Shown here: positions 3,771 through 9,515 of the stretch, piece by piece
Layout: every line of letters starts with the position of its first letter
Position numbering within the stretch: position 1 is the stretch's first letter
DNA from: an uncultured Bacilli bacterium
GTDB taxonomy: Bacteria > Bacillota_I > Bacilli_A > RF39 > UBA660
Length of the DNA stretch: 45,947 nucleotides
Assembly (NCBI GenBank): GCA_944331865.1
Contig: CALVIZ010000004.1
Location: 1 to 45,947 of the forward strand
Reading direction: 5' to 3'
The notes under the pieces: generated by a model
The model's input: the letters and a program-made list of their open reading frames with translations, nothing else
Database searches by the model: none
What the model was told of the DNA's origin: nothing
Made by a program: the position numbers and the translations under genes

Positions 3771-4538
3771 TTATTTTGTAGATACTACCGTTTTGGTATT
3801 ACCTAATGATTCAGCTACGCTTATTAATTCATTTGTTGATAAATCACTACTTACTAAATAGTAACTTATGTTATTAGCATGCCAACTTATGGAATTTGAA
3901 CTTAATGCCCCAACTGATTCATTAAGCATTAAAGGATCACCAAATACCGGTATTACTTCAAATTCATTGCTTGCACTTGCTACTTCTTCCACTATTACAA
4001 AGTTCTTTTCACCACTAAATGTTAGTATCACTCTTTCTCCAGTTTCTGTTTCTATATTTTCAGAACTACTTAGATGAGTATTTGATGGAATATATAATGG
4101 ATATATAATGCTATCTAATGTTGCACTAGTTTTATCTTCACAAGTTCCTTCATTACATTCGCCTTCAGTATTGTTTTCTTCATTGTTAATTTCTGTATCT
4201 ATTAAATCATCTAATAAGAAATCATCTTCGTCTAATTTAGCTTTTAAATCTACAGATTTAAATGTTACTTTTATTTTTACTATGTCTTCACTATTATATA
4301 CTTCTACTTTATTAATATTCATTTTGTCATCAAAATAAATTTTTTGATATGATAAATCTTCATTATTAGGATAATTTACTGTACTTTTAATGATATACCC
4401 ATTGTCCGTTTTTTCTAATGAGGCTTTAGAATCTCCTTTAACATCTTCAACTAAATTTTGTAACAAATATGCTTGTGAAGAATTTTCTGGCCATACACTG
4501 TCAAATTTAAAACTTTTGTTTAAACTAGGTGTTACAAC
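3771..4538 (-). CDS. ydcC: 3' part (255 aa) of interrupted sporulation lipoprotein YdcC/SsdC (LolA/MucB-like, DUF4367)
   Basis: The frame is open from VVTPSLNKSFKFDSVWPENSSQAYLLQNL, which matches B. subtilis YdcC (VLTPSLNKSFRFQSDWPNNSSQVYL). It has no RBS or signal peptide of its own. Confidence 0.88.
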   Translation of the reverse strand, partial: VVTPSLNKSFKFDSVWPENSSQAYLLQNLVEDVKGDSKASLEKTDNGYIIKSTVNYPNNEDLSYQKIYFDDKMNINKVEVYNSEDIVKIKVTFKSVDLKAKLDEDDFLLDDLIDTEINNEENNTEGECNEGTCEDKTSATLDSIIYPLYIPSNTHLSSSENIETETGERVILTFSGEKNFVIVEEVASASNEFEVIPVFGDPLMLNESVGALSSNSISWHANNISYYLVSSDLSTNELISVAESLGNTKTVVSTK

Positions 4539-4554
4539 TATAACACATAAAAGT
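4523..4554. repeat. att junction at the ydcC 3' part (host half, AC/GT core 4537-4538, element arm tataacacataaaagt)
   Basis: The arm at 4539-4554 is a 15/16 inverted match to 9222-9237. Confidence 0.85.
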
Positions 4555-4594
4555 TTTAAATTTTTATAATTTATTATATATTTTTTTAGTAAAT

Positions 4595-5452
4595 TTATTT
4601 ATTTTCTATTTTATCTTGCGTTTCAATATATTTATAGTTTAAGTTATTATTTTTTGTTATTACTGATTCTCCTAGTTTCTTTTCAAGGTCGTCTCTAGCA
4701 ACTTTGGCAGTATTACCACCCATTCTTGCTATTTTTTTATTTTGTTCTAAACCATAAGGCTTATGTTTTTTAGCAAGTTCTCTTGTTGCAGTTTCCCCTA
4801 GGTCTGTCAAAAGGACTTCTATATCGGACATATTATCTCTTAAAGATTCTTTACGAAGTCCTTTAAATGCTTTATATTCACTTGCTTTCATTCCAGACCA
4901 TTCTTGATAAATTTCATTTGTTAATATCCCATATTCATAATTTTTAGTGATACCGCCATATGTCCAAATGTCAGTTAAACGTTTTCTATTAACAATTCCA
5001 TCTAATCTATCCTTAATCCATATATCACTATATCCTCGTTTTTTATAATAATCTACAGCTCTGTTAATAGCAATTTCAGGATTAAATACCTCATCTATTC
5101 TTTCGCTACCTAAATTAGCAAGCCATAATTTAAAAGGTTCTGCTTTAGGACTTGGAACTGATTCAATTAATCTCAATATACCTTTAGTATCTAAAGTATC
5201 AGTCAAATAATTTTTTCCATCTTTTTTTGACTTCATTTTAAGTTGCACGATTTTTTCGTGCAACTGACTTCCTTCTTCTTTTAACTTTCTCTTTAAATCA
5301 CTCCAATAATTTCTTGGTATATTAGCATTAGTTAATGCACTAATAACATCAACAACACTAAAATAATATTCTTCTTTTTCATTATTCCAAATACTTCTTA
5401 TTTCATTACCCTCAAAAAGATTTGATATTGTTTCTAATTTTTCTTGATTCAT
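4595..5452 (-). CDS. Bro-N domain protein (antirepressor-like)
   Basis: LFEGNEIRSIW..YYFSVVDVISALT, NYWSDLKRKL, LRLIESVPSPKAEPFKLWLA and KESLRDNM. AGGAGG RBS. Confidence 0.85.
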   Translation of the reverse strand: MNQEKLETISNLFEGNEIRSIWNNEKEEYYFSVVDVISALTNANIPRNYWSDLKRKLKEEGSQLHEKIVQLKMKSKKDGKNYLTDTLDTKGILRLIESVPSPKAEPFKLWLANLGSERIDEVFNPEIAINRAVDYYKKRGYSDIWIKDRLDGIVNRKRLTDIWTYGGITKNYEYGILTNEIYQEWSGMKASEYKAFKGLRKESLRDNMSDIEVLLTDLGETATRELAKKHKPYGLEQNKKIARMGGNTAKVARDDLEKKLGESVITKNNNLNYKYIETQDKIENK

Positions 5453-5464
5453 TTATTACCTCCT

Positions 5465-7285: not shown

Positions 7286-9016
7286 TTATACATCATTATT
7301 TTTTAAAAAATCTACTTTTTCATATTTTGGAATAATTACTTTTGGACTTCCTGTGTCGATAATTATTCCATTATCAATTACTACTATGTAATCCATATCT
7401 TTAAGTGTTGATAGTCTATGTGCTATACATATTATAGTTTGATTATTAAAATATTTATGTATGTTTTGTTGTATTTTAAATTCTGTATTATTGTCTAAAC
7501 TACTTGTTGCTTCATCAAATATAACAATTTTTGAGTCCCTTAAAAATATTCTAGCTAATGCTATTCTTTGCCTTTGACCACCAGATAATTTTATTCCTCT
7601 TTCACCAACGATAGTATCGTATTTATCATCAAGTTTCTCTATAAATTCGTGCAATTCAGCTTTTTTGGCTGCAGCTACTATTTCATTATAACTTGCTGTT
7701 GGTTTTGCTATCTTTATATTTTCATATATCGTAGTATGTAGTAGTATAGTTTCTTGGGGTACATAAGTTATATTTTCGTATATTGATTTTGTATTATAAT
7801 TATTAATGTCTTTATTATCAATTAATATTTTTCCTTTTTGTGGAGTATAAAATTTAAAAAGTAAATTTACCAATGTTGTTTTTCCACTACCACTTACACC
7901 AATAATTCCAACTTTTTCTTTTTCCTTTATACATAAGTCAAAATTTTGAAAAACATAGTTCTTAGTATATTTAAATGATACATTGTCAAATTTTATAGTT
8001 CCTTTAACAACTTCAATCGATTCCTTAGTGTCATCTAACAAATTGGTGTCATCATATAATAAATTATAACAGTTCTTAAGTTTTACAAATGCTTCTCCAA
8101 TATGAATATATGACCAAGCAAATAAAGTAGTATCGCTTTTTAACGAAATCATTGCATTGATAAAAAATATTAAATTTCCTAGACTCATTAAATTTTTACT
8201 AAACATATTTACAGAATAATAAAGTAAAATTGCAAATGTTATAACATAAACTATATTCGCTATTGCTCCATATGTAAATTCTTTAGCTGATGCCTTATTT
8301 CTAAAATAGTTCGTTTCTTGTTTTTTGTTCTTTAACATTTTAGAAAAATTTTCAACCGAACCATAAACTCTTAAAGATGCAAAGTTTAAAATTGAGTCAT
8401 TTAATACACCAATATATTCCCTATTTGCTTCTTGTGATTTTTGAATAAGAGGTAAATATTTTTGGGAAAAATATATTAATCTGGTAATAATTATTCCACT
8501 AAATAAAATTAGTGCAGTAATAAAAATATTAATGTCTATTGTGTATAAAATTATTAAACTACTAATCATGGATGTTAATAATGACATAAATCCAGTTGTA
8601 ATTAAAGTATTTAAATTAACTATTTCATCATTTATTTCATTTATAGATGATGAAATTTTACCACTAAAATTATTTACAAAAAATGGATATCCCTTTTTAT
8701 CTAAATTCTTAAATAATTTTTCTGAAATATAAGGGGTTTGTTGTTTTACCATATATATAGTTCTTGTAATATTTGAAATATAAAAAAATATTAACTCTAA
8801 TACTATTACAACTAATAAAATTATTATAACCTTATATAAATCACTTATTTGAAAATTACTAGCTGTTGGTAAATCAATAATCCCTTTAATTATGTATTGT
8901 TTAATCAAATCAAAAATTTCTGATATTACCATACTGATTACCATTACTATTGTTAAAAATTTGACTGGCTTATACAATGATAGTACAAAACGGATAAAAT
9001 TACTATTTTTACTCAC
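7286..9016 (-). CDS. ABC exporter, fused permease/ATPase (element cargo)
   Basis: N-terminal TM helices, Walker A GVSGSGKT, LSGGQRQR, DEATSSLD and IAHRL. Confidence 0.95.
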   Translation of the reverse strand: MSKNSNFIRFVLSLYKPVKFLTIVMVISMVISEIFDLIKQYIIKGIIDLPTASNFQISDLYKVIIILLVVIVLELIFFYISNITRTIYMVKQQTPYISEKLFKNLDKKGYPFFVNNFSGKISSSINEINDEIVNLNTLITTGFMSLLTSMISSLIILYTIDINIFITALILFSGIIITRLIYFSQKYLPLIQKSQEANREYIGVLNDSILNFASLRVYGSVENFSKMLKNKKQETNYFRNKASAKEFTYGAIANIVYVITFAILLYYSVNMFSKNLMSLGNLIFFINAMISLKSDTTLFAWSYIHIGEAFVKLKNCYNLLYDDTNLLDDTKESIEVVKGTIKFDNVSFKYTKNYVFQNFDLCIKEKEKVGIIGVSGSGKTTLVNLLFKFYTPQKGKILIDNKDINNYNTKSIYENITYVPQETILLHTTIYENIKIAKPTASYNEIVAAAKKAELHEFIEKLDDKYDTIVGERGIKLSGGQRQRIALARIFLRDSKIVIFDEATSSLDNNTEFKIQQNIHKYFNNQTIICIAHRLSTLKDMDYIVVIDNGIIIDTGSPKVIIPKYEKVDFLKNNDV

Positions 9017-9154
9017 TTATATCACTTCCATTAAAATTTTAAAATATTATTTTAATTATACCATAATTTATAATATATTTCTTTAAATTCAGTATGCTTA
9101 TAATCAAATTTTAACTTTATTACTTTTAATTCATTATATTTAATTTTTTCTTTT

Positions 9155-9183
9155 AAAAAAAGAATATGTATTTAACATATTCT
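9155..9183 (-). terminator. Intrinsic terminator just inside the element end
   Basis: AGAATATG-7 nt-CATATTCT stem followed by a T run on the minus strand, about 26 nt after the truncated ydcC stop. Confidence 0.7.
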
Positions 9184-9209
9184 AGCATTTATAAGAGAAT
9201 AAATAAATT

Positions 9210-9515
9210 TTAAAGTTGTGTACTTTTGTGTGTTATAACATATAACCCATCCTTGTTTTTTAATATTACTTGTTCATGATTATTAGTTTGGTTAACTAAT
9301 ATTACTTTGTAATAATCATCTTTTAAGAAATATGTATCAATATTATAAGTAAATATTTCTTCCCCACTACTTATTTCCATTGTTCCATTTAATTTGTAAG
9401 ATTTACTATTTTCTACATCTTTACTAAATTCTTTTACTGCATCTTCTAATTTATATTCTCCACATCCCGTTAAAGTTAGTAGCATAAATAAAGTTAGTAA
9501 TAAAATTTTCTTCAT
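9210..9515 (-). CDS. ydcC: 5' part of interrupted YdcC/SsdC lipoprotein (93 native codons plus 8 element-derived)
   Basis: Lipobox LTGC, SYKLNGTMEI and EQVILKNKDGLYV match the YdcC N-terminus (QVILRNENGVFV). AAGGGG RBS. Confidence 0.88.
   Translation of the reverse strand: MKKILLLTLFMLLTLTGCGEYKLEDAVKEFSKDVENSKSYKLNGTMEISSGEEIFTYNIDTYFLKDDYYKVILVNQTNNHEQVILKNKDGLYVITHKSTQL
9222..9250. repeat. att junction at the ydcC 5' part (element arm acttttgtgtgttata, AC/GT core 9238-9239, host half)
   Basis: The arm at 9222-9237 is the inverted match to 4539-4554. Confidence 0.85.

Follow-up and report, generated by a model that had tools for sequence, protein, structure and literature searches.

The window analyzed here, a stretch of 45,947 nucleotides (nt), contains a predicted lipoprotein gene of 347 codons that is split at codon 93 by an insert of 4,699 bp (positions 4539-9237), bounded by 16-nt inverted repeats. 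Coordinates are those of the plus strand; the lipoprotein gene (hereafter, the target gene) and the integrase gene lie on the minus strand, which is referred to as the gene strand. The insert has four open reading frames (ORFs), all on the minus strand, which encode an ABC exporter, a 50-residue protein, a large serine recombinase (integrase), and a Bro-N domain protein (Table 1). The integrase ORF of 529 residues, noted in an initial annotation of the stretch, was found as described and encodes the only recombinase of the insert. The reading frame across the junction comprises 92 codons, a Val codon formed by GT plus T, and 254 codons, and removal of the insert together with one GT gives an intact 347-codon frame. 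As interrupted, the N-terminal ORF reads on through 9 codons of the element to a stop at 9210.

Table 1. Features of the insert and of the interrupted gene (window positions, plus strand)
Feature	Position	Strand	Observation
Target lipoprotein gene, C-terminal 254 codons and stop	3771..4535	-	In frame across junction; tblastn matches from residue 1 in 44 loci
Host arm B' (left junction)	4525..4536		Continuous with right flank in empty sites of 8 congeners
Predicted crossover dinucleotide, left copy, AC (plus strand), GT on gene strand	4537..4538		GT in all 44 tblastn-mapped loci; dyad centre
Element arm P, 16-nt terminal inverted repeat, left end	4539..4554		Conserved in 45 sequences (44 loci and window)
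Bro-N domain protein, 285 residues, directly downstream of integrase gene	4595..5452	-	PF02498, E 1.2e-11
Large serine recombinase (integrase), 529 residues	5465..7054	-	Resolvase, Recombinase, and Zn_ribbon_recom domains; TnpX match
Conserved small ORF, 50 residues, ending 12 nt before integrase start	7067..7219	-	Homologues in related loci
ABC exporter, 576 residues, fused membrane and ATPase domains, cargo	7286..9016	-	ABC_membrane and ABC_tran
Region beside P' end, homologous to stretch upstream of relaxase gene; hairpin 9162-9182	9127..9221		Alignment to L073
Element arm P', 16-nt terminal inverted repeat, right end	9222..9237		Conserved in 14 sequences (13 loci and window)
Predicted crossover dinucleotide, right copy, AC (plus strand), GT on gene strand	9238..9239		GT in 13/13 loci mapped on that side
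Host arm B (right junction)	9240..9251		Empty sites of congeners
Target lipoprotein gene, N-terminal 92 codons, signal peptide with lipobox-like LTGC	9240..9515	-	Frame continuity across junction

The boundaries of the insert were located by comparison with uninterrupted relatives. The left flank was searched against 40 related genomes, and the nine best loci were then tested with both flanks. In all eight congener loci that hold both flanks, which are 74 to 84% identical to those of the window, the flanks abut with two bases shared; the ninth locus, L006, ends at the junction. The uninterrupted congener sequence, for example GGTGTTACAACATATAAGCCATC in L004 (window plus strand), agrees with the host site that had been predicted from the window. 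On the plus strand, the left junction reads CTAGGTGTTACA (host), AC, and TATAACACATAAAAGT (element), and the right junction reads ACTTTTGTGTGTTATA (element), AC, and ATATAACCCATC (host). The two attachment (att) site strings that had been proposed for the circular element (attP) and for the empty host gene (attB) were recovered exactly from these junctions by arm swap and reverse complementation.

The initial annotation had also described a 16-bp inverted repeat with one mismatch around GT, and 15 of the 16 positions are indeed complementary; given the base composition of the window, a match this good or better would arise at a single prescribed pair of positions with a probability of 1.5e-7. 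The longest inverted repeat within 4300-9500 has arms of 39 nt (4539-4577 and 9199-9237) that are 72% complementary overall, with the outermost 16 nt at 15/16. A scan of the whole window for the end motif, allowing two mismatches at most, recovered no sites but the two element ends (expectation, 0.35), and 4 of 100 shuffled windows gave at least two sites; by itself, the motif is only mildly unusual in AT-rich DNA (26.5% G+C). Its significance lies in its position: the empty sites of relatives define the break points independently, and the arms coincide with them exactly.

The integrase matched PF00239 (Resolvase; 76 bits against a cutoff of 23.3), PF07508 (Recombinase; 86.3 bits), and PF13408 (Zn_ribbon_recom; 36.1 bits), all above the Pfam cutoffs, and its best PHROG match was the integrase family phrog_95 (E 2.7e-99). 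The nearest solved relative was the catalytic domain of TnpX (2mhc; E 1.5e-25), with a match that covers the catalytic domain only (residues 9-119) and in which the motif R-L-S-R-E-D, containing S16, aligns with R-L-S-R-D-D of TnpX. S16, which we take to be the catalytic nucleophile, and the zinc-ribbon cysteines C324, C327, C353, and C365 were invariant in an alignment of 30 sequences that included the two paralogues of the same genome. Residues of about 400 to 480, considered for the coiled-coil motif that large serine recombinases have within the zinc-ribbon domain, are rich in Lys and Glu and gave a sub-threshold match to the coiled-coil family HAP1_N. The two paralogues, encoded by further intact large serine recombinase genes at G000:C5:19857-21392 (L012) and G000:C16:23573-25135 (L013), are 45% and 36% identical to the window integrase; the arm motif of the family is absent from both loci, and a scan of the genome for that motif found the window element only. 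Among the 55 other genomes in the genus, 28 carry at least one large serine recombinase gene at E 1e-50 or better.

When one genome per species was scanned, 58 loci were found to encode relatives of the window integrase (55 to 95% identical, except one at 33%); all come from metagenome bins of gut, rumen, or faecal origin with labels such as Bacilli, Tenericutes, and Mollicutes. When the two halves of the target protein were mapped onto these loci with tblastn, 44 loci gave a match starting with residue 1 of the C-terminal half, and 13 gave one ending with residue 92 of the N-terminal half. Host and element were separated by GT at every one of these junctions (44 and 13), and the integrase was encoded on the strand of the target gene in all of the mapped loci. 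Three more loci were recognized by motif at contig ends, where an arm, GT, and the beginning of the C-terminal half follow one another. In total, the insertion lay at the same codon in 49 of the 58 loci, 47 of them at the C-terminal-side junction and 2 at the other junction only. The other nine comprised seven loci with fewer than 800 bases after the integrase gene, L032, in which 4.5 kb after the integrase gene contained no junction and which was left unassigned, and L071, which encodes the distant integrase. No different insertion target was found among the 58 loci. In full-length tblastn matches, the C-terminal half of the target protein in these hosts was 32 to 53% identical to that of the window. 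The comparison indicates that the element family is specific for one site, namely, one codon of one gene.

Both ends were available for 16 elements: 12 with measured direct repeats and 4 larger ones whose far ends were fetched separately. The window junctions share AAC on the plus strand, which is the GTT overlap that had been noted on the gene strand. Within this overlap, GT had been predicted as the crossover, and it proved to be the only dinucleotide common to both junctions in 16/16 two-ended elements, which settles the ambiguity between GT and TT that the window alone would leave. The direct repeats of the 12 elements all contain GT and consist of GT alone in four (L021, L044, L052, and L060), and the four larger elements have GT at both ends. 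The rebuilt attP and attB are both imperfect palindromes with the dyad centre on GT. Summed over the 16 elements, the dyad symmetry of attP was 204 of 256 when centred on GT and at most 104 when the centre was shifted by 1 to 4 bases; the corresponding values for attB were 129 and at most 99. The likeness between host arm and element arm that had been pointed out in the window generalizes, with G-N-G-T-T at positions -8 to -4 in all four half-sites. The element arms add ACTTT at -15 to -11, and the P arm consensus over 45 sequences is ACTTT.GTG.GT at -15 to -5. The innermost arm bases vary by lineage (TATA, CTAG, and CAGG) and are roughly symmetric within each element; the P arm matched its own P' arm at a mean of 12.75 of 16 positions, compared with 11.18 for the P' arms of other elements.

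Taken as a whole, these sequence data make it very probable that window 4539-9237 is a small integrative cassette that was inserted in a chromosomal lipoprotein gene by its own large serine recombinase. The boundaries, the arms, GT, and an intact three-domain integrase were all confirmed, and the earlier proposal that the integrase and its att set can be read directly from the window thus stands. In the mechanism envisaged, the recombinase would bring together two sites: the rough palindrome of the circular element, in which the two 16-nt arms flank GT, and the weaker one that surrounds codon 93 of the gene (GG.GTT... GT ...AAC.CC). Both sites would be cut at GT to leave 2-nt staggered ends, and the half-sites would be rotated and religated, leaving one GT at each junction; since GT is not self-complementary, the orientation of the insertion would be fixed. 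We infer this recombination chemistry, as well as any continued excision and integration by the window copy.

The two-ended elements range from 2.8 to 18.8 kb. Cargo of the small elements includes sortase, HipA-like kinase, acyltransferase, RhuM/Fic, LemA with DUF2207, YfhO, NUDIX, and M20 peptidase genes, and one cargo gene encodes a tyrosine integrase. The four larger relatives (10.9 to 18.8 kb) have a shared backbone, in which a Mob_Pre relaxase gene adjoins the P' end in 4/4 and a cI-like repressor gene faces a rightward operon with a gene for a DnaD-N/helix-turn-helix protein; the small ORF, the integrase gene, and a gene for a Bro-N or Fic protein then follow. In searches of Pfam and PHROG, neither the window element nor these four relatives showed a capsid, portal, or terminase family; the one "tail protein" PHROG match, in a relative, concerned a protein assigned by Pfam to the metallo-beta-lactamase fold. 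Phage records held no integrase more than about 38% identical to that of the window, and viral_contigs held no relative of it. Judged by gene content, the family is best described as a group of Tn4451-like integrative mobilizable elements, but with specificity for a single site. Cargo noted in the larger relatives (L073:4470-5588 and L072:2132-3607) includes a reverse transcriptase gene (RVT_1) beside genes for an ATPase and a DUF2201 metallopeptidase-VWA protein and, in another relative, a RelA/SpoT-type protein gene accompanied by two class I tRNA-synthetase-like genes. Such cargo may represent modules for defence or stress that the element carries.

The closest two-ended relative of the window element is L073. 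Window 7264-4438 is 90.6% identical to it in DNA. This block starts 45 nt upstream of the small ORF, takes in that ORF and the integrase and Bro-N genes, and continues past the P end into the flanking gene for about 100 nt. At the other end, similarity covers window 9286-9127 (L073 340-534) and breaks off 8 nt into the Mob_Pre gene of L073. Between these blocks, window 7265-9126 (1.86 kb, with the ABC gene) has no counterpart in L073, which has 11.9 kb of backbone there, and Pfam detected no Mob_Pre relaxase on the window element. As the ABC gene replaces the L073 backbone, the window element is a reduced derivative that keeps the integration module and both ends. The integrase of the window is 92% identical to that of L014 and the Bro-N protein 95% identical to the L014 product, and the host target protein of this closest relative, in L014, is only 41% identical to that of the window. 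No integrase more than 47% identical was found in the other genomes of the genus (55 searched). The 90.6% DNA identity, the diverged target protein (41%), and the lack of a close integrase in the genus together argue for a recent horizontal arrival of the window copy rather than inheritance.

Several observations count against the cassette reading or limit it. The host GT forms the first two bases of a conserved Val codon, and coding constraint on that codon would partly explain the constancy of GT on the host side. In a permutation test of covariation between P and P', 0 of 10,000 permutations reached the observed sum, and the test ignores relatedness among the elements. The empty sites all come from other species of the genus; none was seen in the same species. 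A search for the circle junction with a degenerate attP motif (22 specified bases) gave 0 matches in metagenome_contigs, viral_contigs, and the 77 loci, which is no evidence against excision. Moreover, the relaxase, repressor, and DnaD-like genes that its relatives carry are missing from the window copy, which may no longer be able to move between cells.

An alternative that deserves some weight, although it is unlikely, is that the element was inserted by the serine integrase as described and is now a relic, a reduced copy that no longer excises or spreads on account of an inactive integrase, a lost helper function, or the want of any means of transfer. The exchange of some 11.9 kb of backbone (relaxase, repressor, and DnaD-like gene) for one cargo gene would fit such a history, as would the circle junction found in no collection and the single copy given by the family motif in the genome. 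However, the integrase ORF is intact, retains all family-invariant residues, and shares the 92% identity with that of L014; both ends are preserved at 15/16, and the small ORF and the Bro-N gene are intact. Furthermore, elements of 2.8 to 3.6 kb, with little beyond the integrase, occupy the same site in other species, and small size is therefore no bar to integration.

It is very unlikely that the element is a gene-interrupting element of the skin/SP-beta type, the host-programmed excision of which would reconstitute the lipoprotein gene in certain conditions. Exact repair of the reading frame by excision would fit such a role, as would interruption of the same gene in at least 49 species-level genomes and a sub-threshold NCBIfam match between the integrase and the heterocyst excisase XisF (89.7 bits; cutoff, 375). 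Against this, cargo and size vary freely (2.8 to 18.8 kb), relatives carry a relaxase, the element moves between distant hosts, and the gene is uninterrupted in 8/8 congeners with both flanks. The variable cargo, the relaxase, the horizontal movement, and the empty congener sites point to a selfish mobile element rather than a domesticated switch.

That strand exchange takes place at TT of the GTT overlap or at another nearby dinucleotide is highly improbable: in the window alone the overlap is three bases long and both GT and TT are formally possible, but where the overlap is GT only (4/12 elements), the base after GT differs between the two junctions, the base after GT in host sites may be T, A, or G, and a shift of the centre by one base lowers the attP symmetry score from 204 to 96-104. 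Least credible of all is a transposon with terminal inverted repeats and a target-site duplication of 2 to 3 bp, mobilized by a DDE-type transposase in trans, because, although such repeats with a short direct repeat are also typical of insertion sequences, the insert has the serine integrase as its sole recombinase and no transposase gene, the host site itself has matching dyad symmetry, and use of the same codon in 49/58 loci despite 32 to 53% target identity is unlike duplicative transposition.

Among known systems, the integrative cassette and its family are most readily compared with Tn4451 and Tn4453 from Clostridium perfringens and Clostridioides difficile, which encode TnpX and the MobV relaxase TnpZ. 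The likeness lies in the match of the integrase to the TnpX catalytic domain and in the coupling of a serine integrase with a Mob_Pre relaxase in the full-size relatives, with sizes of 3 to 19 kb. The core of Tn4451 is GA, whereas that of the window family is GT, and the window copy differs further in having neither a relaxase nor a resistance gene. Passages of the literature describe Tn4451-type elements as combining a serine integrase with a MobV relaxase (PMC5704250; PMC3158075) and the Tn4451 integrase as recombining 2-bp identical sequences in the att sites (PMC5704250). Both integration and excision are attributed to that integrase, without a directionality factor, in a part of the Guedon review (PMC5704250). 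The same source, as excerpted, gives Tn4451 a low specificity of integration (PMC5704250), in contrast to the confinement of the window family to one codon of one gene. DUF4368, presented in a section of PMC10083194 as the mark of a multi-targeting integrase clade, had no Pfam match in the window integrase, which differs from that clade accordingly. The same article (Durrant et al. 2022), in the sections drawn on here, reports att sites rebuilt by comparative genomics for 6,207 integrases from 194,585 isolate genomes (PMC10083194). Its site-specific integrases resemble that of the window in the domain architecture described there as typical and in having a single target gene cluster (PMC10083194, in part). 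The window integrase itself is probably missing from that isolate-genome set, since its lineage, an uncultured gut group with small genomes, is represented by metagenome bins alone.

A likeness to the staphylococcal cassette chromosome (SCC) is seen in the variable-cargo cassette without transfer genes of its own, the use of one chromosomal site, and the large serine recombinase. The SCC target is the 3' end of rlmH, whereas the target here lies inside a lipoprotein gene, and the integrase is no Ccr: its best NCBIfam match, CcrB (NF047343), scored 128.4 bits against a cutoff of 900. The phage serine integrases (A118/LI, Bxb1, phiC31, TP901-1, and SprA of SP-beta) share the three-domain architecture with a zinc ribbon, and the imperfectly palindromic att sites around a central dinucleotide are of the kind described for phage integrases in parts of PMC3783163. 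SP-beta is described in a passage of PMC5499854 as inserting inside the coding gene spsM, and the window element likewise lies inside a coding gene. In contrast to phages, neither the window element nor its four larger relatives carry phage structural genes. A model in a portion of PMC3783163 gives the motif bound by the zinc-ribbon domain (ZD) a position in attB that is 5 bp closer to the centre than its position in attP; such a shift of the ZD motif was not recognizable in the AT-rich arm profiles.

The other genes of the window element were characterized to various degrees. The Bro-N protein matched PHROG 15286, of unknown function (E 4.9e-96). In L044, a Bro-N gene 80% identical to that of the window (L044:4382-5233) lies outside the mapped element, just past the C-terminal part of the target gene, and may mark a second element or a rearrangement adjoining the site. 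The ABC exporter is not assignable to a named exporter or resistance family, because all its NCBIfam matches fall far below the curated cutoffs (the best, MsbA, at 291 bits against 602). The small ORF has homologues of 34 to 51 residues in the same place in 47/58 related loci, ending 9 to 13 nt before the integrase start. An alignment of 28 sequences showed conservation at the protein level, with A1, F29, L30, and D31 nearly invariant and a core of Y-K-V-N-N-I-F ... L-I-S-x-F-L-L-S-F-L-D. Neither Pfam, at E values up to 1, nor the protein Atlas (best score, 0.82) gave a usable lead to its function. It is a tentative and rather doubtful suggestion that the small ORF encodes a previously undescribed integrase partner, perhaps a directionality or regulatory factor; if true, the small ORF, the integrase, and the two 16-nt arms would make up a minimal self-sufficient module. 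A second small-ORF fragment (residues 12-32, 86% identical) occurs at L026:4308-4370, about 2.5 kb upstream of the intact copy in an element of 6.8 kb, and may be the trace of two elements fused in tandem. A promoter and terminator scan of 4300-9500 was uninformative (51 promoter-like sites against 44.5 expected).

In L072-L075, a conserved T-rich run, TTTTTATTTTG, lies directly upstream of the relaxase gene and is preceded by a hairpin, the stem sequence of which differs from one element to another (4/4). The window keeps the relaxase-proximal hairpin, and the run that follows it differs. Hairpin and T-rich run could be an origin of transfer (oriT) or a terminator shielding the relaxase gene. 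That the window hairpin region was retained as an oriT, by which full-size relatives could mobilize the element in trans, is a weaker suggestion than that of the small ORF as an integrase partner; no definite oriT was recognized on the window element. An oriT overlapping attP was also considered: the P' arm (9228-9237) shares 10 nt, GTGTGTTATA, with the nick region of the pMV158 oriT, where, as printed, this sequence spans the MobM nick site (PMC5863519). GTGTGT of this stretch is kept in 3/4 relaxase-bearing relatives (GCGTGT in the fourth), the TTATA part is not conserved in 3/4, and a 5-bp hairpin adjoins the P' arm in 6/16 elements only; the resemblance is therefore rated as chance.

The target gene lies downstream of a YbbR-domain gene and obtained no significant family assignment in Pfam, the sole match being LolA-like (E 0.13). 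Between the two genes, an 88-codon ORF (9517-9783, minus strand) had tblastn matches 44 to 59% identical at the same position in 12 related loci, with no family match. The stretch itself was found in sequencing runs (20 rows from 12 studies), with chicken gut metagenomes, as contigs, at the top.

The known principles of serine integrases are unchanged by these findings, and thousands of comparable att predictions exist; the element is a solidly documented case of a familiar kind, and an unremarkable one. Integrase, crossover dinucleotide, and both att sites can be specified with confidence, which makes for a well-defined recombination assay. Any special value as a tool beyond known integrases is tempered by the 6,207 integrases with rebuilt att sites reported in the part of PMC10083194 cited above, and a helper-free two-way reaction, if true here by analogy with Tn4451, would matter for such use. 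In addition, the family offers a natural specificity series, with orthologous integrases 55 to 95% identical, 16 attP pairs, and about 45 attB variants in hosts where the target protein has diverged to 32-53% identity, which should help in learning how serine integrases read DNA. The elements described here document the presence of Tn4451-like mobilizable elements, and their decay to simple cassettes, in a lineage of uncultured gut bacteria with small genomes and without genetic tools.

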